Assembly: GCA_964477255.1 (NCBI GenBank)
Contig: CAYZDK010000001.1
Span: 28,539 to 92,538 of the forward strand
Length of the DNA stretch: 64,000 bases
Direction of reading: 5' to 3'
Source of the DNA: an uncultured Polaribacter sp.
GTDB taxonomy: Bacteria > Bacteroidota > Bacteroidia > Flavobacteriales > Flavobacteriaceae
This document shows, one piece after another, positions 3,183-61,598 of the stretch. The translations under genes and the position numbers were made by a program. Under the pieces are notes generated by a model. The model was not told the DNA's origin. It did not search any database and worked only from the letters and a program-made list of their open reading frames with translations. The stretch's first letter is position 1; every line of letters begins with the position of its first letter.

Positions 3183-3773
3183 TTATTGTGAATAAGAATA
3201 TAAATGCTTTTTCTCTACTAGAATTGCATTAATTGCTGCAGTTGCAGTTTTAAGACGAATTTTCTTATCTCCTTTTAATACAATATAGTTTTTTTTGTTT
3301 TCTATTAAAGCTTTTTCAAAAGCAGTAAACATTTCTAAACGTTGTTCTGGTCTATCTCTTAAATCGTCTTCTTCCCAAGGTGTATCTATGTAGGTTAGTA
3401 AGTACAAATCGTATTCGTTTTTTAAAGTAGCTTTGTGTAGATCTTCATCTACAAAACCATTGTAAAATTCTTGCGAATATACTTTTGTTTCAAGCAAATC
3501 TGTATCGCAAATAAGAATCCTATCTGCTTTTTTAGCTAACTTATTTTCTAATTCCATTTGTCCGTATGCAATTGGCATCATGTCTTTTTGTTCACAAGTT
3601 TTACGTTCTATATTCCACTTTTCTTGAAGGTAATTTCTTGCATATTCAGGTACCCAAACTGTATTGTAAAATCTTGCCAATTGTCTGGATAACGTAGTTT
3701 TTCCAGAAGATTCTGGACCAAAAAGTACAACTTTTACTAAGTTGATTGGGTCTTGTTCAAGCTTTTTTTCCAT
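3183..3773 (-). CDS. NadR-type P-loop kinase (AAA_28, ribosylnicotinamide kinase-like)
   Basis: Walker A GPESSGKTT, WVPEYAR, CDTD, PWEEDDLRD motifs; start moved to ATG 3773 (MEKKLEQ), overlapping the pnuC 3' end. Confidence 0.85.
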   Translation of the reverse strand: MEKKLEQDPINLVKVVLFGPESSGKTTLSRQLARFYNTVWVPEYARNYLQEKWNIERKTCEQKDMMPIAYGQMELENKLAKKADRILICDTDLLETKVYSQEFYNGFVDEDLHKATLKNEYDLYLLTYIDTPWEEDDLRDRPEQRLEMFTAFEKALIENKKNYIVLKGDKKIRLKTATAAINAILVEKKHLYSYSQ

Positions 3774-4366
3774 GATAAATAACCTTGTATGGCTAATATT
3801 GTAAAGATAAGGTACTGCAAAGATAACATTCCTAAGCCACGATATGCGTATAGAGGAACTGTTATGATATCTGCAAAAATCCAAAGTGTCCAATTTTCAA
3901 TTTTCTTATTTGCCATAAAGTACATCGCTGTAAAGAAAATACCTGAAGTAAAAATATCTATGTAATTTTCTGTTGCTATTTCAGTTCCAAAATAGGTATA
4001 AACACCATAGGTTATAATCATGGTTAGAATTACTAGAAATGTACCAATAAGTTTTTCTTTTGCGTTTGTTCTAGAAATTGGAATTACATATTTATCTCCT
4101 TTCTTTCTACTCCAATTCCACCAGCCATAAATGCTCATTACAGAGTAGTAGAAGTTCATCATCATATCTCCAAAATATCCAGCTTGGTAAAGTAGATAAA
4201 CGGTTATAATAGTAGCAACTAATCCTGTTGGATACACTAAAATATTTTCTTTTTTGGCATACCAAACACTGGCAATTCCAAAAATAAAAGCAATACCTTC
4301 TAAAATGATAAATAAAGTAGAAGTGTTTTTGTAAGCTTCTATAAAAAAGTCTAGGAATTCGGTCAT
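3737..4366 (-). CDS. pnuC: PnuC-family vitamin/nicotinamide riboside transporter
   Basis: Multi-pass membrane protein with YGWWNW and KIENWTLWIFAD (WxxW) motifs; adjacent NadR-like kinase. Confidence 0.9.
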   Translation of the reverse strand: MTEFLDFFIEAYKNTSTLFIILEGIAFIFGIASVWYAKKENILVYPTGLVATIITVYLLYQAGYFGDMMMNFYYSVMSIYGWWNWSRKKGDKYVIPISRTNAKEKLIGTFLVILTMIITYGVYTYFGTEIATENYIDIFTSGIFFTAMYFMANKKIENWTLWIFADIITVPLYAYRGLGMLSLQYLIFTILAIQGYLSWKKSLNKTQST

Positions 4367-4376
4367 CTATTTTACC

Positions 4377-4595
4377 TTAGTTGGTTTCATGAATATTCTT
4401 AGAAATAGGTTTATATAAAATGATAAATGGCATCAATAAAAGAACAAGTAATGCTATTATGTTTATGGATCTTCCATACAATAGATTGGAAGCAACAAAA
4501 GCACCAAAGATTATTCCATCTATAAATAAGGAAAGTAAAATTAATGAAAGTGCCTTTTTAGTAATTACTAAAGCACCAATTTTTAAATCTTTCAT
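4377..4595 (-). CDS. Small hypothetical membrane protein (2 TM)
   Basis: 72-aa ORF with two hydrophobic segments filling the gap between co-oriented genes with 10-nt spacers. Confidence 0.55.
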   Translation of the reverse strand: MKDLKIGALVITKKALSLILLSLFIDGIIFGAFVASNLLYGRSINIIALLVLLLMPFIILYKPISKNIHETN

Positions 4596-4605
4596 TTGTA
4601 TTTAA

Positions 4606-5232
4606 TTAATACGCAAAAACGCAAGTAAAATCTTCAAATTCTAAATAATTTATACAATAGGTTTCTTCTTCACCATCAAAACGTATGTCTCCTGTAGTTT
4701 TACCATCTGTTAGTCTAAAATCGGCAATAAATATATCTCTCAAAAAAAGCAATTGCTTTTTACCATAAACTTTGTATAGGCTTTCTTTTGCTCCCCAAAC
4801 AATCGTAAGTTTTCTAATTAAGGCATCTGTATTAGCTATGGTTCTGTATTCTTGTAACGGAGTAAATTTATGTGCTATTCTTAAGATTTTTTCTCTTTGT
4901 TTTTCAATATCAATTCCAACTTTACAGTCAGAAGAAATAATAATACCTGTAAATTGAAACGAATGCGTTATCGAAATGAAGCGACCATCTTTAAGGTGTG
5001 GTTTTCCAAATTCATCATACACTAAATCACTATCTGAAAGATTAGCTATCGCTAATAAATGGCGAATAGAAAGAAATCCTTTTTGATGAATTTCAGATTT
5101 CATAGAGAGCAAACGATTTTCGCTATTTTTAGAAAGCGTAATTCCCTCATGTAACTCGTTTATAGACTCTTCTATCTTCCAAATGAGTACGTTAGTAGTT
5201 TCGTTAACCGTTAAACTTTTATAAAGCGCCAT
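4606..5232 (-). CDS. 4'-phosphopantetheinyl transferase (Sfp-like)
   Basis: FDEFGKP-like YDEFGKPHL, SITHS, VGIDIE and WGAKESLYK motifs. Confidence 0.9.
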   Translation of the reverse strand: MALYKSLTVNETTNVLIWKIEESINELHEGITLSKNSENRLLSMKSEIHQKGFLSIRHLLAIANLSDSDLVYDEFGKPHLKDGRFISITHSFQFTGIIISSDCKVGIDIEKQREKILRIAHKFTPLQEYRTIANTDALIRKLTIVWGAKESLYKVYGKKQLLFLRDIFIADFRLTDGKTTGDIRFDGEEETYCINYLEFEDFTCVFAY

Positions 5233-5253
5233 AGTTTTTTAAAATTGATGTTG

Positions 5254-5261
5254 TACCTTTG
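5254..5261 (+). promoter_or_regulatory. -7 promoter box (TACCTTTG) for ahcY
   Basis: TAnnTTTG consensus 35 nt upstream of the ATG. Confidence 0.65.
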
Positions 5262-5296
5262 CTGCTCGCAAAAAATTTGATATAAAGATACATAAT

Positions 5297-6604
5297 ATGA
5301 GCACAAAAACAGCTTACACACCTTTTAAAGTAAAAGATATTTCCTTAGCAGAGTGGGGAAGAAAAGAAATTGAACTAGCAGAAGCAGAAATGCCAGGTTT
5401 AATGAGCTTAAGAGAAGAATATGGAGAAAGTCAACCGTTAAAAGGCGCAAGAATTGCAGGTTGTTTACACATGACCATTCAAACTGCGGTATTAATTGAA
5501 ACTTTACAGGCATTAGGTGCAGAAGTAACGTGGAGTTCTTGTAACATATTTTCTACCCAAGACCAAGCTGCTGCTGCTGTTGCTGCAAACGGAACTGCAG
5601 TTTATGCATGGAAAGGAATGACAGAAGAAGAGTTTGATTGGTGTATAGAGCAAACCTTATTTTTTGGAGAAGAAAGAAAACCACTAAACATGATTTTAGA
5701 TGATGGTGGAGATTTAACAAACATGGTTTTAGATAAATATCCTGAATTAGCAGAAGGAATTAACGGTCTTTCTGAAGAAACTACTACAGGAGTGCATAGA
5801 TTGTACGAACGTGTTAAAAAAGGTACACTTCCAATGCCTGCTATTAATATTAATGACTCTGTTACTAAGTCTAAGTTCGACAATAAATACGGTTGTAGAG
5901 AATCTGCTGTAGATGCAATTCGTAGAGCTACAGATGTAATGTTGGCAGGTAAACGTGTTGTAGTTTGTGGCTATGGAGATGTTGGTAAAGGAACAGCTGC
6001 ATCTTTTAAAGGAGCAGGATCTATTGTAACTGTTACAGAAATAGACCCTATTTGTGCTTTACAAGCTGCAATGGATGGTTTTGAAGTAAAGCGCTTAGAA
6101 ACTATTTTAAGCACTGCAGATATCGTAATTACTACAACAGGGAATAAAGATATTGTAAGAGGAGAGCATTTTGAAATGATGAAAGACAAAACTATTGTTT
6201 GTAACATAGGCCATTTTGATAATGAAATTGACGTGGCTTGGTTAAATGCAAATAGTGAAAAGATAGAAATTAAACCTCAGGTTGATAAGTATAACATCAA
6301 CGGAAATGATATTATCTTATTAGCAGAAGGTCGTTTGGTAAACTTAGGTTGTGCAACAGGTCATCCAAGTTTTGTGATGTCTAATTCATTTACAAACCAG
6401 ACTTTGGCCCAAATGGAACTTTGGAATAATGCAGATAAATACGAGAACAAAGTATATATGTTGCCAAAGCATTTAGATGAAAAAGTAGCAAAACTACACT
6501 TAGAGAAGATTGGTGTAGAATTAACAGAGTTAAGAAACGATCAAGCAGAATATATTGGTGTAACTGTAGAAGGACCATTTAAACCTGAGCATTACAGATA
6601 CTAG
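5297..6604 (+). CDS. ahcY: Adenosylhomocysteinase
   Basis: [59 protein letters not shown] motifs. Confidence 0.98.
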
Positions 6605-49923: not shown

Positions 49924-52900
49924 TTATAAATTAAATCCAAAATTAAACGTAATTCTAGGGCCATCCACACTGTTGAAAACGCCAAGCCTACCAGCTACCA
50001 TATTAGCAGCACTAACTAAAATACCACCACCAACGGATGTATTTAAAGATGTTGCTCCGTTAGGAATGTTTAGTAAACTCTCTGGAGTTCCCCAAACCAT
50101 TCCATAATCAAACCCACCAAAAAGCCCTATTGTTAAAGGAACCATTTGTGTTTTAAATTGCGTGAGATTTAATCGGATATCAGAACTGTGATAGAAAGCA
50201 TTTTTACCAGTAAATCTTTCGTTTCTAAATCCTCTTAAACCTCTATTTCCTCCAATATTTGGTGCTTGAAAGAATTCGAATGCATTACTAAATAAAAAAT
50301 GTGCAGAAGCTTTTGTTGCAAAAACAAGCAGGCCATTAGACACTAATTTATGGGTAAATCCAATACTTGTTTTATTGTAGGTAAAGTCTCTTTTTTTAGT
50401 AATATTAGAAGTTACGCCAAAAGCAGTTGCAAACTCAAAACCTAGTGTTGGAAACCCTACATTGTCAATATTAGAAAAAGAATAGCTTAATTCTGAGTTA
50501 AAAAATTGCTGCGAATTAAAAAGGCGATTATTTTCATTGTATAGGGTTTCTAAAAATCTGCCAGGAGTTCTTTCCACATCAAAATTTTGATAGTTTGCTG
50601 CTAATTTAACTGATGCACCAAGTCTTCCTCTCCATTTTAAAAAGGCCCCTAAATTAATTTTTCCAATTCTTACCCTATTAAAATCTCTGTTTTCTTCATC
50701 TTTAAATGCTTCTGGATTTGCAGAATTATTTCCAAAGCCAAAAAAGTTTCTAGCAAAATTAGGACTATTTAAATCTGCTTCAATTCCTAAGTTCCAATTT
50801 CTAAGTACTTTTGCAAATTCACCATTATAGTTAAGTTCAAACCCTTCTGTTGCAAAATAATAGCTACCAGAAATATTGTGCTGGTTGGTAAAAGGATTTC
50901 GCTTAAATCCGTTGTGAGTAGATCTAAAGAGAAACCCTAATTTTACGCCATCGTCTGGATTGTACCCGATTGCAGGGTAAATGGCATTTGCTGTTTTTTT
51001 TAATTTTAAATAATTATAAGTATTGGTTTTATAATCATCCGTAAACTTTGTTCTGACTTTAGAGGTTGTAGAAAAGGTGTTTTTCTTACTTTTTTGGTCA
51101 TAAACTACAATATTTTTGCCTGTAGGAATGTCGTAATAATCATTATTTAAACCACCAATTAGAATTAGTTTTATCGATTTTTTTTCTGGTACTCCAGTAA
51201 CTTTAAAAGTATCTTTATCATCTAAACCATACAGCCAAATTTCTTTGGTTTCTTTATTAGAGTACGTTTTATCATGAATTTTTACCCCTTTTTCGCCATC
51301 TTTTATTCTATAGATTTTAATATTTGTAAATCCATTTGGCAATCTTTCTATATCAAACCAATCGTCTTTATTAGTTCCTTTTACCACCTGAAATCTAGAA
51401 AAGTACTGGTAGTATCTGTCAGAAATCTGTTGTAAATTATTTCTACGTTCTATTAATTTTTTTCGAATAGATGTTATTGTTTCGTCTTTTACTTCACTTG
51501 GAAAATTTTGAAAAGCTTTATCTATAATATTATTAGATATTGTAGTTTGTAAGAGTTGTGCCTGTTGGTTCCAGTCTTTTTTAGAAGCTTCTGCTATGAT
51601 TAACATGTCTAAAGGATAAGCAGAATAATTAAAGTGTTCTGGCTTTTTCAAATCTTCACTATAAGATCGCATACCTTGCAAAGCAGGAATAGTTTTCGTT
51701 AAATAGTTTAATAGAAATCCATCGCTGTACATAGAGAAAGCTTGGTCTCTATCTCTAGGTACAGGTTTATACACTACTTTTTTACCTTCTTTAAATTCTG
51801 CCCAACGCCACTGATCTTGATGTCTATCCCAATCTCCAATTAGCATATCAAATAATCGCGCTCTGATATAACTATTTTCATCTACAACATACTTTTCATC
51901 TTTAGCTAATTTTTTTCTAAAATCGTCTGTACTTATCAATTCGTTAGAATACCCAAAATTAGCTTTATCTCCGTGTCCAGAATCTGTTCTTTCTTCTATC
52001 ATGTATAACGCATTGCCATAATTTTCGTTGTACTGCCCAAGTGCATTTTGCTTTGGTACATAATACAATGTTGGTTTGGTATGATATATATCTGCAGCGG
52101 CTGCCAATTCTGCAATTGTGAACGGGGCATAAGGATGTGAGCCTGTAAATACATCTAGCAGTAATTTTTCTGGAAATGTTTTATCGTATTGCCCTTCTAT
52201 ATATTGGTCTTTAAAAACCACAGCTTGTAAATACTGTACTGCACTTTTTCTTAAAGCTCGCATTACATACTGTCTTCCTTGCTTGTCTTCTAACCGTAAT
52301 GATTTGGATTGATGGCCACCACCTTTTCGTATAGGTTTTAGTCCGCCAAAAAGGGTATCTAAGTTTACTGTAGGTGCGTTTACTTTGGTGCCAAAATATT
52401 TTCGATATCTTTTACCCCAGAGGAATTCAAAAAACTTTCCTTTAGACACTTCTTCTTCGGTATAAATCGAAGCTTTTTTAGAGGGTAACTCTATATTTTT
52501 AAATTGTTGAAAAGAAGGGATGCTATCTGCATCTAGAACATTTGCTTTAAAAATGGCATCTTTAGTAAAAGCATCAAAAAAGTGAACAGTAGAAGATCCG
52601 TTTTCATAAATATCTAATCGTGCATATCCATTGGTTCCGTATCCAAATACTGCGCCATCACCATTTTTTACTGCAGATTTTTTAGATCCAGAACCACTTA
52701 CAATTTGATGTAAGTTGTCTTTAATTATGTATTGTAAACTATGTTCGTGACCTGAAACAAAAATTACTTTTTCATTGCTTTGTGCAATTGTTATTAATCT
52801 TTTTTGCAACTCATTATATTTCTTATTTTGTATGTCTACATTAGCAATACCTGTAGTTTTACGTAGTAGATTTTTTAGAGTTCCAAGTACAGGAAAAGGT

Positions 52901-53622
52901 TTTAAGTGGCTTTTAAACGAATATTTACCTCCATGAGAACCATTGGTAAACATTGGGTGATGAAGGGCTACAATAGTTGTTTTACCTCTAGATTTTTTAA
53001 TATCACTTTCAAATTCTTCTAAGAATTTTTCTCTCGTTTTTATTTCACATTTATCATTTATACCTGGGTGTTTATTCCAGTTAGTAATATACCAATGTGT
53101 GTCTACAATAATTAAATTAATCTTGTCATTAATTTCTTCTTTTTTTAAAGGACAACCATTTTCTGGTAGAAAAGAATTCTTTCCTAGTTTGTCGTCTACC
53201 AGATCTTCTTGTCTTTCCAATCCTTTTAAACCACTATACCAATCATGGTTTCCAGGAATCATAATTGTTCTTCCAGGAAACTGTTCTCCTATTTCTGTTT
53301 GTACTCTAAGTTTATGCTTTGCTAATTGGTATTCTTTTTTCTTCTTTTTATTAGGAATTCCTTTTTCGTAAACGTTATCTCCTAAAAACAAAAGTGTAGC
53401 ATCCTTTGGAGCTTTTTTAATATCCTTTGCTAACCTTTGAAGTGCGATGTCTTTTTTCCCTAATTCAGAACCACCTGCATCTCCCATTAAATAAAAGGAG
53501 TGTAAGATTTTACTATTTGGTTTTTCATATTTCACAGATTCATCTACTTGCATTTTAAATGTTGCACACGAATAAAAAAGAAAAAAGCTACAAATAGAAA
53601 CTGCTAAATTGAGATGTCTCAT
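49924..53622 (-). CDS. Lipoprotein metallophosphoesterase fused to a kinase-like domain and an Omp85/BamA-type beta-barrel
   Basis: Lipobox FYSC; calcineurin-like GDAG, GDNVY, GNHDW, HHP, GHEH; central GGGHQS...DRHQDQ...RDRDQ; C-terminal barrel with GLRGF loop-6 motif; start moved to ATG 53622. Confidence 0.85.
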   Translation of the reverse strand: MRHLNLAVSICSFFLFYSCATFKMQVDESVKYEKPNSKILHSFYLMGDAGGSELGKKDIALQRLAKDIKKAPKDATLLFLGDNVYEKGIPNKKKKKEYQLAKHKLRVQTEIGEQFPGRTIMIPGNHDWYSGLKGLERQEDLVDDKLGKNSFLPENGCPLKKEEINDKINLIIVDTHWYITNWNKHPGINDKCEIKTREKFLEEFESDIKKSRGKTTIVALHHPMFTNGSHGGKYSFKSHLKPFPVLGTLKNLLRKTTGIANVDIQNKKYNELQKRLITIAQSNEKVIFVSGHEHSLQYIIKDNLHQIVSGSGSKKSAVKNGDGAVFGYGTNGYARLDIYENGSSTVHFFDAFTKDAIFKANVLDADSIPSFQQFKNIELPSKKASIYTEEEVSKGKFFEFLWGKRYRKYFGTKVNAPTVNLDTLFGGLKPIRKGGGHQSKSLRLEDKQGRQYVMRALRKSAVQYLQAVVFKDQYIEGQYDKTFPEKLLLDVFTGSHPYAPFTIAELAAAADIYHTKPTLYYVPKQNALGQYNENYGNALYMIEERTDSGHGDKANFGYSNELISTDDFRKKLAKDEKYVVDENSYIRARLFDMLIGDWDRHQDQWRWAEFKEGKKVVYKPVPRDRDQAFSMYSDGFLLNYLTKTIPALQGMRSYSEDLKKPEHFNYSAYPLDMLIIAEASKKDWNQQAQLLQTTISNNIIDKAFQNFPSEVKDETITSIRKKLIERRNNLQQISDRYYQYFSRFQVVKGTNKDDWFDIERLPNGFTNIKIYRIKDGEKGVKIHDKTYSNKETKEIWLYGLDDKDTFKVTGVPEKKSIKLILIGGLNNDYYDIPTGKNIVVYDQKSKKNTFSTTSKVRTKFTDDYKTNTYNYLKLKKTANAIYPAIGYNPDDGVKLGFLFRSTHNGFKRNPFTNQHNISGSYYFATEGFELNYNGEFAKVLRNWNLGIEADLNSPNFARNFFGFGNNSANPEAFKDEENRDFNRVRIGKINLGAFLKWRGRLGASVKLAANYQNFDVERTPGRFLETLYNENNRLFNSQQFFNSELSYSFSNIDNVGFPTLGFEFATAFGVTSNITKKRDFTYNKTSIGFTHKLVSNGLLVFATKASAHFLFSNAFEFFQAPNIGGNRGLRGFRNERFTGKNAFYHSSDIRLNLTQFKTQMVPLTIGLFGGFDYGMVWGTPESLLNIPNGATSLNTSVGGGILVSAANMVAGRLGVFNSVDGPRITFNFGFNL

Positions 53623-53623
53623 T

Positions 53624-54229
53624 TTAGTTAAGTTTGTTAAATTGAGCGATATAATTCGTATAATCTTCAAGAGTATCAATATCAATTAAATTAGCAGTAA
53701 AGGTACTTAAAATAGTGTTTTTTTGATTTTTAAGCATCATATTTTTAGCGCCTTTATCTCCATTTATATGTGCTAACTCGTTCCAATAGATTCTTGGAAA
53801 TATTGCTGGTACTCCAGGACTGTTATTGTAGGATGATGCAATAATTTTCTGACGATTTTGATTCCAAAGCGCTCTTAGTTTTTTTAGGTACTTCATTTCA
53901 ATAGCTGGTTGATCACCCAAAAGAACAAATACTGCTTTAAAAGGAGCGTTAACAGATTTAAAATATGCGATACCAGATTTAATACTTTCGCTAAGACCTT
54001 TATGATAATTGGTATTGTGAATGTAATTTATATTTGATAATCGGATACTTTTTTTTACTTCTTTGAAATTTTCGCCAAGTGTACAAAAAGTTGCTTTTGG
54101 GGCAATTTCTAGCGCTTTTTCTAAGACAACTTGAAGCATGGGTTTATCTGCTATTTTTAGCAATTGCTTATCGGTTTTCATACGCGATGATTTTCCTGCA
54201 GCAAGCACTAATATTGCAATTTCACTCAT
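53624..54229 (-). CDS. MocA-like nucleotidyltransferase (NTP_transf_3)
   Basis: LAAGKSSRM, GLSESI, LGDQP, GDKGAK, DIDT motifs. Confidence 0.88.
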   Translation of the reverse strand: MSEIAILVLAAGKSSRMKTDKQLLKIADKPMLQVVLEKALEIAPKATFCTLGENFKEVKKSIRLSNINYIHNTNYHKGLSESIKSGIAYFKSVNAPFKAVFVLLGDQPAIEMKYLKKLRALWNQNRQKIIASSYNNSPGVPAIFPRIYWNELAHINGDKGAKNMMLKNQKNTILSTFTANLIDIDTLEDYTNYIAQFNKLN

Positions 54230-55248
54230 TATTTAGAATGAATTTTTCCAGTTAATTCTCTAAGATAAAACGGTTCTTTATTCCTAAAGACAGACAGAAT
54301 TTCTGCAATTATAGAAATGGCAATTTCTTCTGGTGTACGAGCACCTATGTGTAAGCCAGCTGGAGTATAAATGCTTTCAAGAAATGCATCAGAAACATCA
54401 GGAACATAATTAAATAAGTCGTTAAAAAGCTGTTCTCTTCTCTTTGGGGCTCCTAAAATACCTATGTAGGTTGCTTTGTGCTTGCTTAATTCAATTACAT
54501 ATTTTAAATCTCGTACAAAACTGTGGTTCATGATAACAACAGCAGTATTATTCTCTATTTCATTGAATGAAAAAGTTTCAGGTTCTGCACCTTGCATGCT
54601 ATTTGCACCTGGAAAATCTGTTAGTTTTTTTTGTTCTTTTGCAGGAGTAACTACATCTACTTGCCAACCTAAATTACTTGCAATACTGCATAACTTAACA
54701 GCATCGTGTTCACCTCCAATTATTAACAAGCGGAAACATGGAGAAAGAGTTTGTTCCAATAAAAGAGAATCTTTTGATTGTTGCGTGTGGTAATTCTCAG
54801 AAAATGTAAATTTTTCTTGATTTATTATAATTTCTGACCCAAAATTACCCTTTGCTTCATCTTCTTTTTGATAGGAAGAAATTATTTTTACTGCTTTTCT
54901 ATTTCGATAGTTTTGTAAGAAAACAGCATTTAATTTATCAGAAACCAGAAAAGGTTCTATTAAAATGTATAAAATACCTTCACAACCTAGTCTGTACCTG
55001 CCATCGTAAGTAATAATTTTAGCTTTATTTTCTTTAAAAACAGATGCAGCTCTAAGAATTATTTCTTTTTCTACACAACCACCACTAACAGCACCAACAA
55101 TGCTTGAATCTTCAGCAATAAGCATGCGTACACCTGGCTTTCTATAAGAAGATCCATCTAAATGAACCACTGTAGCTAAAACATTTTTTAACCCTTTTTT
55201 TTGATTGCTAATGGCTTTCTTGAAAATTTCTTTTACTTCGTGAATCAT
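54229..55248 (-). CDS. XdhC/CoxI family molybdoenzyme maturation protein
   Basis: GSSYRKPG, GAVSGGCVE, LGCEG, YIGILG, PAGLHIGARTPEEIAISI; start moved to ATG 55248. Confidence 0.9.
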   Translation of the reverse strand: MIHEVKEIFKKAISNQKKGLKNVLATVVHLDGSSYRKPGVRMLIAEDSSIVGAVSGGCVEKEIILRAASVFKENKAKIITYDGRYRLGCEGILYILIEPFLVSDKLNAVFLQNYRNRKAVKIISSYQKEDEAKGNFGSEIIINQEKFTFSENYHTQQSKDSLLLEQTLSPCFRLLIIGGEHDAVKLCSIASNLGWQVDVVTPAKEQKKLTDFPGANSMQGAEPETFSFNEIENNTAVVIMNHSFVRDLKYVIELSKHKATYIGILGAPKRREQLFNDLFNYVPDVSDAFLESIYTPAGLHIGARTPEEIAISIIAEILSVFRNKEPFYLRELTGKIHSK

Positions 55249-55278
55249 AGAAAATCTAAAGTACACTTTTTTATGCAA

Positions 55279-56835
55279 TTAAGAACTACAAGACAACATG
55301 GAACACCCTACTTTGTCCCTTGCCCATTCAGGTCTTTTTGCATACCATTTTTCAAATATAGGTTGTTCTTGGTACGGTTTTTTTAGTAGTGTATAAAGCT
55401 CATCAATTAATTCATATTGTCCTCTATTTGCAGCATCAATAGCTAATTGTGCCATATAATTTCGTAATACATATTTCGGATTTACCGAATTCATTTTATT
55501 TTGTCTTTCTAATTGCGATAGTTTTTCTTTTTTTAACCTTTCTGCATATAATCTAAACCAATTTTCCCACTCGTCTTTATTTTTTTGACCTATATTTTCT
55601 GCATCATAAAAGGCTTTTTCAATCAATTCTAATCCATTTTTATCTTCAGAAAACTTACTTAATTCGCGAAAAAAAATGGTCATATCTATTTCTTCTAAAA
55701 GCAAGCAATCTTCTAATTTACTAATTAAGTTTTTATCTTCTTTCTGGTTTTCGTAAAATCCTAGTTTAGACTGCATCATGGTTAACGATTTTGTTTCAAA
55801 ATCAATTTTATATTGATTTAGAATTTCTTCTAATGGAGCAGCATCTTCTATAATAGGGTATAAGGCATTTGCCAATTGGTACAAATTCCAAAGTCCAATA
55901 TTTGGTTGATTTCCATACCTATAGCGTCTTTGTTGCCTATCTGTTGTGTTTGGAGTCCATCCAAAATCAAAACCTTCTAACCAGCCATAAGGGCCATAAT
56001 CTATAGTTAATCCTAAGATAGACATGTTATCGGTATTCATTACACCATGTACAAAACCAACTCTTTGCCAATGAATTATTAGGTCTAGGGTTTTGGTAGT
56101 TACTTCTTTAAAAAACTGAATGTAAGTTTTTTTAGATGGTTTACCTAAATGACTAAAATGATGTTTTATAGTATAATCTACTAATAACTTTAAATTGGCA
56201 ACATCTTTTCTAGCAGCAAAAATTTCAAAACTTCCAAAGCGTAAAAACGAAGGAGAAACTCTACAAACAATTGCACCTTTTTCGTAAGCAGGATTTCCAT
56301 CGTACATAACATCACGTAAAACCTTATCTCCAGAAAGACATAAAGACAAAGCACGAGTTGTAGGAACACCCAAATGATACATAGCCTCACTACAAAGGTA
56401 TTCTCTAATCGAAGAACGTAATACTGCTAATCCGTCTGCGGTTCTAGAATATGGAGTTTCTCCTGCACCTTTTAATTGTAATTTCCAGTTTTTTTTATTT
56501 TGCGCAACTTCAAAAAGGTTTATTGCTCTGCCATCTCCTAATTGTCCTGCCCAATTGCCAAATTGATGCCCAGCATAACACATAGCATAAGGATTGGTAT
56601 TTGGATATATTTCTTGCCCTGAAAAAATGGCTTTAAACTTTTCTGAGTTACTTTCTTCTTTAGAGATGCCTAATTCATTAAGCATTTCATCAGAGGTATG
56701 AATCAATTGTGGGTTTTTTGGAGCTTTCGGATTTACATAAGAATACATAGCACCAAAAACTTGCCTTCTACTATTCTCTAAATTTGGATCTGAAGGTAAC
56801 TCGTCAGTAAAATTATTTGTGATATTAAGCTTCAT
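55279..56835 (-). CDS. selO: Protein adenylyltransferase SelO (YdiU)
   Basis: YAGHQFG, LGDGRA, QLKGAG.TPYSR.ADG, GFVHGVMNTDN, IDYGPYG, C-terminal CSMLSCSS. Confidence 0.96.
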   Translation of the reverse strand: MKLNITNNFTDELPSDPNLENSRRQVFGAMYSYVNPKAPKNPQLIHTSDEMLNELGISKEESNSEKFKAIFSGQEIYPNTNPYAMCYAGHQFGNWAGQLGDGRAINLFEVAQNKKNWKLQLKGAGETPYSRTADGLAVLRSSIREYLCSEAMYHLGVPTTRALSLCLSGDKVLRDVMYDGNPAYEKGAIVCRVSPSFLRFGSFEIFAARKDVANLKLLVDYTIKHHFSHLGKPSKKTYIQFFKEVTTKTLDLIIHWQRVGFVHGVMNTDNMSILGLTIDYGPYGWLEGFDFGWTPNTTDRQQRRYRYGNQPNIGLWNLYQLANALYPIIEDAAPLEEILNQYKIDFETKSLTMMQSKLGFYENQKEDKNLISKLEDCLLLEEIDMTIFFRELSKFSEDKNGLELIEKAFYDAENIGQKNKDEWENWFRLYAERLKKEKLSQLERQNKMNSVNPKYVLRNYMAQLAIDAANRGQYELIDELYTLLKKPYQEQPIFEKWYAKRPEWARDKVGCSMLSCSS

Positions 56836-56836
56836 C

Positions 56837-57370
56837 TTATTTTAGTTTACTAGCATGTAGTTCTCTAAGCTTAGCCAATTTTGGCTCAATAACAAAGCTA
56901 CAGTAACTGTTTTGTGTATTTTCTTTATAAAAATTTTGGTGTTCTTTTTCTGCTTCATAAAAAATTGGAGCTTCACTAATCTCTGTTACAATAGGATTAT
57001 TGTAGTAAGGCTGTAACTTCTTAACAACTTGATGTGCAATCTCTTTTTGTTCGTTAGAATGGTAAAAAATAACAGATCTATATTGGGTTCCTCTATCTGC
57101 ACCTTGTCTATTTAAAGTAGTAGGATCATGCGTTGTCATGAAAATAATTAATATGTCTTGATAGGAAATAATATCTGCATTGTACGAGATTTGAATTACT
57201 TCTGCATGACCTGTTAACCCAGAACATATTTCTCTGTAGGTTGGTTTTCCAGGAGCATTTCCACCAGAATACCCAGAAATTACTTTTTCTACTCCTTTCA
57301 CTTCTTGAAAAACTGCTTCTGTACACCAAAAGCATCCTCCACCAACAGTAGCAATTTTAGTATTAGGCAT
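56837..57370 (-). CDS. msrA: Peptide methionine (S)-sulfoxide reductase
   Basis: GGGCFWCTE, TGHAE, DRGTQYRS, AEKEHQ, YC motifs. Confidence 0.96.
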   Translation of the reverse strand: MPNTKIATVGGGCFWCTEAVFQEVKGVEKVISGYSGGNAPGKPTYREICSGLTGHAEVIQISYNADIISYQDILIIFMTTHDPTTLNRQGADRGTQYRSVIFYHSNEQKEIAHQVVKKLQPYYNNPIVTEISEAPIFYEAEKEHQNFYKENTQNSYCSFVIEPKLAKLRELHASKLK

Positions 57371-57821
57371 TTTCAGACGATTTTTCTAGTTGAAGCGAAG
57401 CTGAGTTGATGCAATAACGTAATCCACTTGGTTCTGGTCCATCAGGAAAAATATGTCCTAAATGAGCATCACAAGTATTGCAGAGTACTTCTACTCTGAC
57501 CATTCCAAAAGTGGTATCTTTTATATATTTAATTGCGTTTTCTTTAATAGGCTGTGTAAAACTTGGCCATCCAGATTTCGAATCGTATTTAATAGTAGAG
57601 TCAAATAGAGGGGTGTTGCAGCACTTGCAGTTGTATCTGCCTTTTTCATAAGTGCTACATAATTCACCTGTATGAGGTCTTTCTGTACCTTTTAAACGGG
57701 TTACTCTAAACTCTTCTTCTGTTAATTGTTTCTTCCATTCTGCATCTGTTTTTTCTACCCTTTTATCTGGAGCAGGATTTCCGTTAACGCTAAAATTTAT
57801 AATATCTTTCCAAGTAAGCAT
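57363..57821 (-). CDS. msrB: Peptide methionine (R)-sulfoxide reductase
   Basis: GTERP, CKCC and CNTC zinc pairs, GWPSF, HLGHIF, RYCINS. Confidence 0.96.
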   Translation of the reverse strand: MLTWKDIINFSVNGNPAPDKRVEKTDAEWKKQLTEEEFRVTRLKGTERPHTGELCSTYEKGRYNCKCCNTPLFDSTIKYDSKSGWPSFTQPIKENAIKYIKDTTFGMVRVEVLCNTCDAHLGHIFPDGPEPSGLRYCINSASLQLEKSSENA

Positions 57822-58004
57822 CTGTTTTTTTATTTAAATTGATTATAATTTTATAGGTATTTAAAGTAGATAACATTCTTGTAGCCTTACAATTATTTAG
57901 TACTTTGTAACCTATTTAATTTACAGTTAAATTTACAACGAAATATAAGACCAAGAATAAGGGTTGTATAGTTTCTAACTATCATTTTATAAAACAAGTT
58001 GAAT

Positions 58005-59207
58005 ATGTCAGAATTGGTTTCTTTAGTAGAAAAGCATGTTACTCATTTGCTAAACACACAATTAGATTCTAATTATTTGTACCATAATTTGGTGCATACA
58101 CAACGTGTAGTTAAAAAAGCAGAAGAGTTATTGGATAAAGCAGCACTATCAGATAAAGATAAAGAAGCTGTTTTAATTGCTGCATGGTTTCATGACACTG
58201 GTTTTGTTGTAACCCCTAATAATCATGAAGAGCAAAGTGTTCTTAAAGCAAAGTCGTTTTTAGAATCACAACAAGTTAGTGAAGCGCTTATTACTAAGGT
58301 TTCTGATTTAATTTTAGCAACTCAGCTAAGCCATCAACCAAAAAACGAGGCAGAAAAAGTGATAATTGATGCTGATTGTGCCCATTTGGCCTCTAAAAGT
58401 TTTTTTGATACCAACAGACTTTTACGAAAAGAATGGGAATTGTTAGGACTAAAAACCTACACTGATAAAGAATGGATATTAGAGAATATCAATTTTTTTA
58501 CAGAAGGGCATAAATACCATACTGAATACGCTCTAAAAGATTGGATAAAATCTAAGGAGAAAAACTTAGCTAAATTGATGAAAAGCTTGAAGAAGCATAA
58601 GGAGAATCAGAAAAAATTTAAGCAAAAACAAGAGTCTTTAAAGATTAAAAAAGAGAAAAAAGAACTTCCTGAACGTGGTGTAGAAACGATGTTTCGTGTT
58701 GCTTTAAAAAATCATATGGAGTTAAGTAATATAGCAGACACTAAAGCTAACATTTTGCTTTCTGTAAATGCTATTATTATTTCATTGGCGCTCTCTAATT
58801 TATTACCAAAGTTAGATAATCCATCTAATGCTCATTTAATAATACCAACTGTGATTTTTGTGATTTTTACAGTAGCTTCTATAATACTTTCCATCTTGGC
58901 AACGCGCCCTAATGTAACAGAGGGTACATTTACCAAAGAAGATGTAGCTAATAAAAAAGTAAATTTACTGTTCTTCGGAAACTTTCATCAAATGAAACTA
59001 GATGAATTTGAGTGGGGCATTTCTGAGGTAATGAAAGACAAAGATTACTTGTATAGTACATTAACCAAAGATTTGTATTTCTTGGGATTGGTTTTAGACA
59101 AAAAATATAAGATATTAAGAGTAACCTACACTGTTTTTATGTTTGGCATAATAATAAGTGTAATTGCTTTTGCATTATCTTTTAGAGTATATGGTGGTGT
59201 TTCTTAA
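58005..59207 (+). CDS. HD-domain phosphohydrolase fused to a Pycsar-type transmembrane effector (DUF5706-like)
   Basis: YHNLVH, AAWFHDTG, HEEQS, DADCAH; Lys-rich linker; IADTKANILL, LLFFGNF, YLGL-like FLGLVLDKKY and three hydrophobic helices. Confidence 0.85.
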   Translation: MSELVSLVEKHVTHLLNTQLDSNYLYHNLVHTQRVVKKAEELLDKAALSDKDKEAVLIAAWFHDTGFVVTPNNHEEQSVLKAKSFLESQQVSEALITKVSDLILATQLSHQPKNEAEKVIIDADCAHLASKSFFDTNRLLRKEWELLGLKTYTDKEWILENINFFTEGHKYHTEYALKDWIKSKEKNLAKLMKSLKKHKENQKKFKQKQESLKIKKEKKELPERGVETMFRVALKNHMELSNIADTKANILLSVNAIIISLALSNLLPKLDNPSNAHLIIPTVIFVIFTVASIILSILATRPNVTEGTFTKEDVANKKVNLLFFGNFHQMKLDEFEWGISEVMKDKDYLYSTLTKDLYFLGLVLDKKYKILRVTYTVFMFGIIISVIAFALSFRVYGGVS

Positions 59208-59210
59208 AAG

Positions 59211-61598
59211 TTACACTTCTAACTCTTTAAGTAAATCTTTGTAGGTTATTGCTTTGTTTTCTTCTGTAAACTCTTGGTATTTTACCTCAACCCTTAATGC
59301 TTTTAAACCTGAAATACCTTGTAAATCTTCTATTTCTAAAAACTCTAATTTACCTAGTTTGTTTTTAGATTGTAAGAATTTAATGTACTTCACATATTCT
59401 TCTGCATCTGCTTCTTGCGAATATACAATTGCAATTTTACCTGGTGTTGTAAGTCTTTCAGTTGTTCCTTTTATGTTAGCCTTGTCTATTCTTTTCTTTA
59501 TTATTTCGTATCTAATATTGTAAGCACCATCAACATCAAACTGTTTTTCATCCATCCTAAATTTAATAGACATTGCATTACCATGAACAAGAATTAGAGA
59601 TGCAACTTCTAGCTTAAAAGGCATATTTTTTTGTTCGTGATACACAATATTTTCTAGTTCGCAAGTAGTTTTAAGTTGCCAAATTCGTAAATTATGAAAG
59701 TATAAAGGATTAAATTTTTTTGTTTTTGTAATAGATTGCCCTATATACATGTTGTACTCAATTCCATCTGTTTTGTAACGCTCAAAATAGTGCGGAAACA
59801 TAGCTTGGGCTTCTTTTTGTCTGCTATCTATATGTTGGGCTAACTTATCATTAATGTGATTTACACTTTGTTCATAATCTTTTCGTTTTTCATATACCAC
59901 ATCTAATTCTTTATCTAATCTTTTGGTGTAAATACCAACTTTTTCAAATAGCTCTTTGTTAATCTCTTTTATATGACGAAATACAGGATATATTTCCCTT
60001 TTCAGGAAATCTATAATGGTGATTTCATCTCCTGCGTTTAATCCTTTTTTTACATTATTTAAAAAGCCAGTAACTCTAAACATCAATTCGTTATAAATAG
60101 GAAGAGGTTCGTTTGTACAGGCACTTTCTAGAACAGAGATGGCTAATGTTAGTTGCGTAATTAGGTCTTCTTTAATGGCGTTATTTCTTGCTTCAGAAGA
60201 CCCTTTTATATCTGTTTGCCCAAACAAAGGAAATACATCTTTAAAAACAATTTCGTCTAATTTAGCATTACTATTAGAAGCTTTATTAAAATAATATTTT
60301 TCTGCAGCCTCATAAAATCGCCATTTTACTGAGTTATGAATAGAGGTGTAATTTTCTTGTATGGTTGCTTCTAAGTTATTTTGTCTTTCTTCAAAGACCC
60401 TGTTAACTGCAGCTTCAAAAACAGGAATTATATCCTTTAATTTGTTAATGTTAACAGAGTTTAAATCGTAAGCATTTGGTGAAGATATTTCTAATAAAGC
60501 CAAATCTTCAGAGGAGTTAGCTTGAATAGGAATAAGAACAATACTTTTTAAGTTTTGTTTTTTTAAATTTTTATACAATTGATTTTCGTTAGAAAACTCT
60601 CCATATTTATCAATATCAGAAATAACAAAGGTTTCTTTATTTTCAAAAACTTTTGTCATTATATCTTCGCAGAAAAAGTCTTTATCACACTTTACTTCAT
60701 GGTTATGGTTTAAAATTATACTATCTACACTTTTAATTATTGTTTCATAAGCACTACTATGTGCATTATGTAACAAAGAGTAGCCTAGTTTTAGGTCTTT
60801 TATGCCATAAAAATCTTTTAAATTACTTTCTAAACTTTCTATTAAATTGTCTTCTTCTGCAAGTAAGTTTGCTTTTATGGAAGAAATCATTTCTTCTGCA
60901 GTAACATCGAATAAGTTTATGATACCAAATCCTTTAAATATGTAACTATTTGGCGGAAATTTTTCTCTCCATAAATCTATATTATCATAATTATTTAATA
61001 GCTCTTTAAAGTCCTCTTGGTTAAGTTTTGGAGCTTTATCTGTTCTAGATATTTCTGTAAAATCTGCATTAAAAGCAGCTCTATAATATTTCATTGTTCC
61101 AGTAGTTTTATCTGGAATATTAAAATAAAATGGACGTTTAACATCTGCTTTAATACCATAACAAAAACCTAAGATATAGGTGCATGCCATGATATACATG
61201 CTGTCTTCTTCAAAGTTTCTTACCTTTAACTCAAAGTCTGATCCTGCGTTATTTAAAATATTTTGAAATCTATCTGTAAGTTTAAAAGAAGTAAATGTGA
61301 AAGGAATACTGGCTGCTTTAATTTCATTTAAAAGTAAAGCTTCTGGGAAAAGAGGGTCTAATAATAAATTTATTTCTTCGCTGTATTTTTCTATTAAACT
61401 TAAGTCTGTAAAACCAGAGATTAACTCAGGAGTTTTACTTAAGTGTGCTACAATATTTTTAGCAGATGCATGAAATGGATGCGTTTCATAGCTGTCTTTG
61501 GCATATTTTTCAAACATATCATATACCTTTCTAAAAGATATATTTAGTTGTAATGGTAGATCTAATTCTTCATTAAAATCTTTTCCTATAATCTTCAT
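59211..61598 (-). CDS. GAF-domain protein with a putative divergent class III nucleotide cyclase domain
   Basis: GAF-like segment (VISDID...KSIVLIPI...LLEISS); C-terminal FGQTDIKGSS, RYKTDGI, FDVDG, KKRIDK, PGKIAI, LQGISG motifs in cyclase order. Confidence 0.7.
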   Translation of the reverse strand: MKIIGKDFNEELDLPLQLNISFRKVYDMFEKYAKDSYETHPFHASAKNIVAHLSKTPELISGFTDLSLIEKYSEEINLLLDPLFPEALLLNEIKAASIPFTFTSFKLTDRFQNILNNAGSDFELKVRNFEEDSMYIMACTYILGFCYGIKADVKRPFYFNIPDKTTGTMKYYRAAFNADFTEISRTDKAPKLNQEDFKELLNNYDNIDLWREKFPPNSYIFKGFGIINLFDVTAEEMISSIKANLLAEEDNLIESLESNLKDFYGIKDLKLGYSLLHNAHSSAYETIIKSVDSIILNHNHEVKCDKDFFCEDIMTKVFENKETFVISDIDKYGEFSNENQLYKNLKKQNLKSIVLIPIQANSSEDLALLEISSPNAYDLNSVNINKLKDIIPVFEAAVNRVFEERQNNLEATIQENYTSIHNSVKWRFYEAAEKYYFNKASNSNAKLDEIVFKDVFPLFGQTDIKGSSEARNNAIKEDLITQLTLAISVLESACTNEPLPIYNELMFRVTGFLNNVKKGLNAGDEITIIDFLKREIYPVFRHIKEINKELFEKVGIYTKRLDKELDVVYEKRKDYEQSVNHINDKLAQHIDSRQKEAQAMFPHYFERYKTDGIEYNMYIGQSITKTKKFNPLYFHNLRIWQLKTTCELENIVYHEQKNMPFKLEVASLILVHGNAMSIKFRMDEKQFDVDGAYNIRYEIIKKRIDKANIKGTTERLTTPGKIAIVYSQEADAEEYVKYIKFLQSKNKLGKLEFLEIEDLQGISGLKALRVEVKYQEFTEENKAITYKDLLKELEV

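Follow-up and report, generated by a model that had tools for sequence, protein, structure and literature searches.

A conserved HD-PycTM fusion protein of the Bacteroidota as a candidate self-limiting, cyclic-nucleotide-responsive membrane effector

The window analyzed here, a stretch of 64,000 nucleotides from an uncultured Polaribacter sp. (Flavobacteriaceae; assembly GCA_964477255.1, contig CAYZDK010000001.1, positions 28,539 to 92,538), encodes at 58005-59207 on the forward strand a protein in which an N-terminal HD domain is joined through a Lys-rich helical linker to a three-transmembrane (3TM) module of the PycTM type. Judged from comparative sequence evidence, this HD-PycTM fusion may be, with a probability of roughly 45%, a self-limiting membrane effector that responds to a cyclic mononucleotide (cNMP). 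The protein would reside in the inner membrane, with a cytoplasmic N-terminal HD domain predicted to be a catalytically competent metal-dependent phosphohydrolase and the PycTM-type 3TM module as its C-terminal half. This module would oligomerise in the manner of the PycTM relative PucTM, a hexamer with a channel of ~15 Å lined by transmembrane helix 2 (TM2) (bioRxiv 10.64898/2026.08.12.744502), and binding of the presumed cNMP ligand to a conserved cytoplasmic face (ADxKA, RP, NxxFFGNF and DxKY) would change the permeability of the membrane. A class III cyclase acting in trans would supply the signal, and the membrane cyclase G000:C32:1574-2671 is the candidate. The fused HD domain, for which we infer phosphodiesterase activity, would hydrolyse the activating nucleotide and thereby set a threshold or a timer, and it is through this hydrolysis that the proposed effector would limit itself.

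The gene is a single open reading frame (ORF) with an ATG start and 400 codons plus a stop. A TTG at 57999, two codons 5' of the ATG, is a second possible start and the less likely one, because homologues begin at the ATG. Base composition at the gene is not unusual. All of the strings quoted for this protein in an earlier note on the same DNA (LYHNLVHTQRV, AAWFHDTG, IIDADCAH, ADTKA and FFG) are present in the translation, and the architecture described there, an HD domain followed by a Lys/Glu linker, a PycTM-like 3TM domain and a cytosolic FFG loop, is borne out by Pfam, PADLOC and hydropathy. An AlphaFold2 (AF2) model built from 149 homologues has a mean predicted local distance difference test (pLDDT) value of 86.3, with values >90 for nearly the whole HD domain, and renders the linker as a single long helix (residues 174-220); 18 of the 47 residues at 176-222 are Lys or Arg. 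The features of the protein are as follows.

58005..59207 (+): whole ORF of the HD-PycTM fusion, 400 aa plus stop, with the TTG alternative at 57999
58005..58529 (+): predicted HD phosphohydrolase domain, residues 1-175, from Pfam HD, YpgQ/YedJ-type profile matches, AF2 pLDDT and conservation
58080..58097 (+): YHNLVH motif (Y26 H27 N28 .. H31), with H27 invariant and H31 at least 90% conserved
58191..58196 (+): H63-D64, the eponymous HD metal-ligand pair, from conservation
58224..58229 (+): H74-E75, a second conserved His/Glu pair, aligned also in the small HD hydrolase 2pq7
58368..58376 (+): D122-A123-D124, of which the invariant D122 supplies the distal Asp in H...HD...D
58530..58670 (+): Lys-rich helical linker, residues 176-222, from composition and a single long helix in AF2
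58671..59204 (+): complete PycTM module (PF18967 / pJV1-spdB3-type 3TM), residues 223-400, from Pfam and PADLOC
58734..58748 (+): ADTKA motif directly before TM1, with D245 and K247 invariant
58749..58811 (+): predicted TM1, residues 249-269, from hydropathy
58836..58901 (+): predicted TM2, residues 278-299, from hydropathy; putative pore-lining helix by analogy with PucTM
58971..58985 (+): FFGNF motif, part of cytoplasmic loop 300-373, which is rich in Lys/Arg; G325 is invariant
59124..59186 (+): predicted TM3, residues 374-394, from hydropathy

The identity of the C-terminal half is well defined by profile comparison. Pfam PycTM (PF18967) covers residues 271-381 with 130.5 bits against a cut-off of 27.2 (E-value 4e-38), the PADLOC PycTM model matches residues 234-391 over model positions 13-152 of 160 (E 6.9e-18), and the PADLOC PycTM and '2TM effector' models together align to residues 232-391. 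Since the PADLOC models are matched over almost their full length, this half is best read as a complete PycTM-type effector module and not as a fragment. Three hydrophobic segments (249-269, 278-299 and 374-394) are separated by a loop with no Lys or Arg (270-277) and a loop with 12 (300-373), a spread that points to a 3TM topology with the N-terminus inside and thus to a cytoplasmic position of the HD domain, ADTKA and the FFGNF loop. The AF2 helices of this half extend over residues 224-271, 273-300 and 346-396, and a search of PDB sequences with the half returned no matches. Across 136 representatives that are 33-56% identical to the protein, H27, D122, E143, D245, K247, P302 and G325 are invariant, and conservation reaches 90% or more for H31, F62, D64, G66, T106, P112, FFGNF, D356 and K367, so the cytoplasmic face of the 3TM module is under strong constraint; the features of the protein go far beyond what chance would give. 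Standalone PycTM proteins linked to cyclases also keep K247-A248 of ADTKA, and the FF of FFGNF is common among them.

PycTM effectors of Pycsar systems were reportedly described by Tal et al. in Cell in 2021. Like PycTM and PucTM, the module of the fusion (residues 223-400) matches the entire ~160-aa effector and has three TM helices with a conserved cytoplasmic face, and its close relatives adjoin or are fused with class III cyclases. Unlike the PycTM and PucTM proteins of Pycsar and Pucsar systems, it carries an N-terminal HD enzyme, has no adjoining cyclase in the window genome and is vertically inherited, syntenic and near-ubiquitous in the Flavobacteriaceae instead of patchy; a role in defence would be putative.

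The metal site of the HD domain appears to be catalytically intact, because its residues are conserved in the 136 representatives, and the ligand set H...HD...D (H31, H63-D64 and D122) is invariant or at least 90% kept in 136-149 family members. Pfam HD (PF01966) matches residues 30-125 at 28 bits, above the cut-off of 22, and the domain runs on into a conserved helical region with W157, H169, H172 and T173. By sequence, the nearest solved relatives of the HD half are small YpgQ/YedJ-type HD hydrolases, which a profile of the family recovered from the PDB (3b57, E 1.5e-9; 3dto, 5.4e-8; 2pq7, 6.3e-8; 3djb, 9.5e-8; 3gw7, 4e-7; and, weakly, 5dqv). The family profile was needed for this result, as the single-sequence search with the HD half returned only noise (E>0.1, JmjC proteins). 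Structures of this type (2pq7 and 2pjq) also headed the Foldseek matches to the full-length model, at a TM-score of 0.56-0.66 normalized by target and E>1e-3. The H...HD...HE...D layout is shared between these hydrolases and the fusion, while the former are soluble, stand-alone proteins of ~200 aa that read GHDWxH where HD-PycTM has YHNxxHT. YpgQ is a nucleoside triphosphate pyrophosphohydrolase, and we know of no link between YpgQ/YedJ-type HDs and cyclases or membrane modules.

The earlier note had also proposed a signature like that of class I phosphodiesterases (PDEs) for this domain. The likeness in YHNxxH...HD...D stands at the level of the superfamily, and class I identity is rejected on profile and signature. 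The PDEase_I Pfam profile had no match to the protein even at E<=1, and in the family profile search chains of PDE10A, PDE5 and PDE4 were reached only at E 0.04-0.4, the PDE10A and PDE5 matches covering YHNxxH...HD and the PDE4B match covering residues 146-244. The class I signature, taken as HD[LIVMFY]xHx[AG]xx[NQ]x[LIVMFY], is absent from the protein and from all 431 collected proteins; the protein reads HDTGFVVTPNNH, with HDTGF at the HD pair. YHNxxH itself occurs in 237 of the 375 family members and the looser [YFW]HxxxH in 361; the likeness to class I PDEs is genuine yet not diagnostic of membership. In structural comparison, PDE4D and PDE5A appeared at ranks 4-40 over ~260 columns (TM-score 0.41-0.48 by target, E 0.01-0.1), HD-GYP structures followed at E ~0.1-0.2, and no match for the full-length model was better than E 1e-3. 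The fusion thus shares with PDE4, PDE5 and PDE10 the HD superfamily, the metal and acid residues of YHNxxH...HD...D and these weak Foldseek matches, and differs from them in the lack of a PDEase_I match and of the HDxxH signature and in the size of the domain (~175 aa versus the ~320-aa PDE catalytic domain).

Precedent for the hydrolysis of cyclic nucleotide signals by HD domains is provided by PgpH, a 7TM receptor with an HD c-di-AMP phosphodiesterase, and by HD-GYP proteins. As in PgpH, the HD enzyme of the fusion belongs to a membrane-embedded protein, but domain order and membrane module are not those of PgpH, and no significant sequence match to PgpH or HD-GYP was seen. Enzymes that degrade an activating nucleotide are also found among the self-limiting effectors and ring nucleases of type III CRISPR systems (Csm6, Crn1-3) and in the phage anti-Pycsar protein Apyc1. 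The logic of a signal-degrading enzyme attached to, or encoded beside, an effector would be similar as an analogy only, as the folds are unrelated (CARF, metallo-β-lactamase) and the ligands differ.

The idea that the putative effector removes its own activating nucleotide gains real comparative support from the cyclase contexts of its relatives and from the nesting of cyclase and fusion among genomes. The sole class III cyclase of the window genome lies on another contig (G000:C32:1574-2671; L002 937-2037) and has 366 aa, with ~4 hydrophobic helices towards the N-terminus and the cyclase domain in the C-terminal part; the protein scores slightly higher with the PADLOC PycC model (E 8.5e-16) than with Pfam Guanylate_cyc (E 8.4e-14). 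In five of the 20 non-Flavobacteriaceae Bacteroidota genomes, the fusion occurs <=5 kb from a ~360-aa membrane cyclase that is 31-43% identical and orthologous to this protein, and in two of those five the cyclase directly adjoins the fusion in convergent orientation. Within 151 Flavobacteriaceae genomes, the L002-type cyclase and the fusion are both present in 62, the fusion alone in 49, the cyclase alone in none and neither in 40; for any PF00211 cyclase the corresponding counts are 81, 30, 9 and 31.

Standalone paralogues of the HD domain (~200 aa, 28-34% identical) keep all of the invariant residues of the fused domain, including W157...H169xxH172-T173. Seven of the 12 such genes in the 151 Flavobacteriaceae genomes (E<=1e-35) are directly downstream of a class III cyclase and two more are within 3 kb; gene adjacency counts throughout were tallied by hand from tables. 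These cyclases are of the TPR-cyclase kind, have 625-670 aa and match PF00211 at E 1e-55 to 1e-62. The HD-domain tree resolves little beyond one clade, well supported, that unites the cyclase-linked standalone HDs of the Flavobacteriaceae. Complete operons in the order cyclase, PycTM, HD occur at L085 (Lutimonas; 3444-6470, +) and L086 (1668-4823, -), where the standalone PycTM proteins of 168 and 186 aa match PADLOC PycTM at E 5e-26 and 9e-24, respectively. Two tandem TPR-cyclases are found upstream at L085, and TPR-cyclase/HD arrangements are also present at L083, L084 and L087.

The standalone PycTM proteins closest to the module of the fusion (42-46% identical to residues 215-400) belong to the Balneolaceae; this name and that of Lutimonas were assigned through exact sequence matches. 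These genes are directly downstream of a conserved cyclase of 646-654 aa in 18 of 38 genomes and 7-17 kb from it on the same strand in another 11; the cyclase, with its N-terminal cyclase domain and C-terminal TPR, was found in 38/38. Two genomes encode direct fusions of a cyclase domain and PycTM of ~381 aa (G210:C4:229214-230302 and G349:C261:8360-9469), and in Rhodohalobacter the gene order is Omp85-like, cyclase, PycTM and HD with gaps of 152, 81 and 35 bp. The Balneolaceae cyclase-PycTM pair looks like a core gene pair and not a mobile defence system. An example of the pair, cyclase(-TPR) followed by PycTM, is L094 (G178:C1:827000-837500).

The distribution of the full-length fusion is that of a vertically inherited chromosomal gene of the Bacteroidota and not of a mobile defence island. 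A word-indexed protein search returned >7,900 matches, the best of which were all ~400 aa, 65-72% identical and from Polaribacter, and an exhaustive search of 50%-identity representatives gave 611 clusters at E<=1e-30, with full-length fusions making up nearly all of the top 150. Named matches from the profile search belong to the Cytophagales, Chitinophagales, Sphingobacteriales and Flavobacteriales. The fusion is present in 111/151 sampled Flavobacteriaceae genera, mostly as a single copy, and the genomes without it are mainly <3 Mb; the window genome contains only one PycTM gene. Identity declines with taxonomic distance, from 62% in a genome of the same genus to 36-49% outside the family but within the phylum, and the fusion diverges like the housekeeping genes adjacent to it (at L007 the fusion is 65% identical, SelO 75%, XdhC 67% and MobA 49%). 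Single copy, synteny and vertical inheritance make a standing physiological or stress role, or an anciently fixed immune role, likelier than membership of a mobile defence island.

Several of the observations weigh against the self-limiting effector. By sequence, the HD domain is nearest to YpgQ/YedJ-type hydrolases and not to any known cNMP phosphodiesterase. Of the 111 fusion-bearing Flavobacteriaceae genomes, 30 (27%) are without any PF00211 cyclase and 49 without the L002-type cyclase, the association of the latter with the fusion (Fisher p 7.6e-12) is uncorrected for phylogeny or genome size, and 0/80 related Flavobacteriaceae fusion loci have a cyclase domain within 8 kb. Most of the Balneolaceae cyclase-PycTM pairs are without an HD gene; because such pairs exist, the HD domain would be an accessory, a status that fits a regulatory, signal-removing role. 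Further, a PPK1 paralogue is located directly downstream of the fusion in 7/20 non-Flavobacteriaceae Bacteroidota genomes (mostly co-directional and 33-635 bp away, with all four PPK1 domains confirmed and a second PPK1 elsewhere in five of the seven), and genes for His_Phos_1, PAP2 and phytase-like proteins recur near the fusion outside the Flavobacteriaceae. The PPK1, phosphatase and metallophosphoesterase neighbours make a phosphate and polyphosphate theme a serious rival or an additional layer. As a rival, the fusion would be a phosphohydrolase that is tethered to the membrane and takes part in phosphate or polyphosphate metabolism; its HD domain would act on polyphosphate or nucleoside polyphosphates in a YpgQ/PPX-like manner, and its 3TM module would anchor it as an oligomer or form an anion channel instead of a cNMP-gated toxin. 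The kinship with YpgQ/YedJ-type HDs and the genes just listed, together with the metallophosphoesterase-Omp85 neighbours, are consistent with this explanation, as are a weak Ppx-GppA_III match of a paralogous HD and an exopolyphosphatase among the Foldseek matches. It has to contend with a window genome (assembly 94.5% complete) that has no PPK1 homologue at E<=1e-40, where 19/20 other Bacteroidota genomes searched have one or two, and with the lack of a PPK1 near the fusion in any of the 80 Flavobacteriaceae loci. It also leaves unexplained the cyclase-PycTM-HD operons, the cyclase-PycTM fusions and the 62-to-0 nesting of the cyclase, and the PycTM module retains the motifs common to cyclase-linked PycTM proteins; the explanation is considered unlikely. 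The PPK1 paralogues beside the fusion are:

L101 3559-5616 (+): PPK1 paralogue
L100 2607-4688 (-): PPK1 paralogue
L099 8569-10578 (-): PPK1 paralogue
G328, G322, G383 and G166: PPK1 paralogues in four further genomes

Two further explanations were considered. In one, quite unlikely on the evidence collected, the fusion would be a true Pycsar-type abortive-infection effector, for which a distal PycC-like cyclase senses phage and the HD domain merely suppresses leaky activation. The PADLOC PycTM matches, the NCBI name 'Pycsar system effector family protein' given to relatives, the slight preference of the genome's single cyclase for the PycC model and the resemblance of the TPR-cyclase-PycTM-HD operons to defence systems all agree with such a role, but the fusion is not beside a cyclase, its neighbours are housekeeping genes and its base composition is unremarkable; as a single-copy, syntenic and widely conserved gene that diverges like those neighbours, it is unlike the patchy genes of mobile defence. 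In the other, the HD domain would sense a ligand without catalysis or serve only to cap the pore structurally, and the protein would turn over no nucleotide. Some HD-like domains are non-catalytic, for example domain III of PPX, and canonical PycTM proteins need a cytosolic element for ligand sensing. The invariance or near-invariance of H31, H63-D64, D122, H27, H74-E75 and E143 in both the family and the standalone paralogues speaks for catalysis, however, and the Balneolaceae cyclase-PycTM pairs would work as units without an HD domain, which together render the sensor or cap highly improbable.

The self-limiting effector and the phosphate theme could be combined in a broader scheme, speculative and, as it stands, improbable, in which PycTM-type 3TM pores are the output of an ancient, phylum-wide housekeeping module of the Bacteroidota envelope. 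A membrane class III cyclase would signal to the HD-PycTM channel, the HD domain would reset the signal, and the Omp85-metallophosphoesterase protein of the outer membrane and, in many lineages, a dedicated PPK1 paralogue would cooperate, such that cNMP signalling is coupled to phosphate and polyphosphate traffic across the envelope. The mobile Pycsar systems would be derived from this module, and PycTM pores would thus not be only toxins of phage defence.

Full-text literature searches (PycTM with HD domain, DUF5706, and Pycsar with HD and phosphodiesterase) found no description of an HD-PycTM fusion, and HD partners go unmentioned in a recent comparative survey of cyclases related to Pycsar. 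The combination of the two domains is already visible in database annotations, where relatives are named 'Pycsar system effector family protein' (NCBI), 'HD domain-containing protein', 'DUF5706' or 'predicted metal-dependent HD superfamily phosphohydrolase'. To our knowledge, the only role known for PycTM is as the membrane-killing component of anti-phage systems built on cyclases, and cyclic-nucleotide signalling in the Bacteroidota is poorly understood. Here, a PycTM module bears a conserved HD enzyme, predicted and apparently active, in a stable chromosomal gene found across the phylum, and its relatives display every intermediate: the cyclase-PycTM fusion, the cyclase-PycTM pair, the cyclase-PycTM-HD operon and the HD-PycTM fusion. 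Should the HD domain be a cNMP phosphodiesterase, it would represent a new bacterial HD-type enzyme of this activity and the first self-limiting Pycsar-like effector, and would offer a handle on cyclic-nucleotide signalling in the Bacteroidota. The automatic 'Pycsar system effector' labels in thousands of Bacteroidota genomes are probably not marks of defence islands.

The locus itself is not a canonical Pycsar locus in the window genome, with no adjoining cyclase and with housekeeping neighbours. Upstream on the opposite strand are msrB, msrA, SelO, XdhC and MobA, and downstream are a convergent gene for a 795-aa protein and then GH26 and GT2 genes; no cyclase is found among the neighbours of the fusion in the window, and the only PF00211 match of the genome is on contig C32. 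Three of the surrounding features recur in relatives.

59211..61598 (-): convergent 795-aa protein with a predicted PAS/GAF-like fold and no Pfam or NCBIfam family
49924..53685 (-): 1253-aa protein combining a calcineurin-like metallophosphoesterase (N-terminal) with an Omp85/ShlB-like barrel (C-terminal), a conserved context
53624-57821 (-): msrB-msrA-SelO-XdhC-MobA block, which separates the fusion from the 1253-aa gene

In 71 of the 80 Flavobacteriaceae fusion loci the 795-aa gene follows the fusion downstream in convergent orientation, and it is a conserved neighbour in 74. Homologues of the protein from 68 Flavobacteriaceae loci share 41-71% identity with it, and many residues are invariant (e.g., FDVDG.YN and HYFERYKTDG). 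No Pfam or NCBIfam match was obtained, even when the halves were searched separately, and a profile of the protein gave weak GAF matches only. The N-terminal and middle part of the AF2 model (pLDDT 85.6) is PAS/GAF-like, the model also shows long helices and an alpha/beta C-terminal domain, and its Foldseek matches are to PAS/GAF sensors at a TM-score of ~0.2 (DosP, a phytochrome-cyclase chimera, soluble guanylate cyclase and many phytochromes), so that a PAS/GAF-like sensor is plausible from the model. A GAF-cyclase was considered and is not supported: hhalign against class III cyclase domains gave a probability <1%, and no similarity to class III cyclases appears at the profile level. The gene was rejected as a required partner of the fusion, which it adjoins only within the Flavobacteriales; in 15/20 other genomes it is absent or distant.

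The 1253-aa metallophosphoesterase/Omp85-like gene is upstream of the fusion in 59-62 of the 80 Flavobacteriaceae loci, and its homologues flank HD-PycTM or cyclase-PycTM genes in 65 of these 80 loci, in the Balneolaceae (L090 and L094) and in other families (L095, L097-L099 and L101). The msrB-MobA block is likewise situated between the two genes in Polaribacter and Tenacibaculum relatives. Just 40-100 bp separate the fusion from the 1253-aa gene in most other genera, which suggests that a lineage-specific insertion placed the block within a divergent gene pair of greater age.

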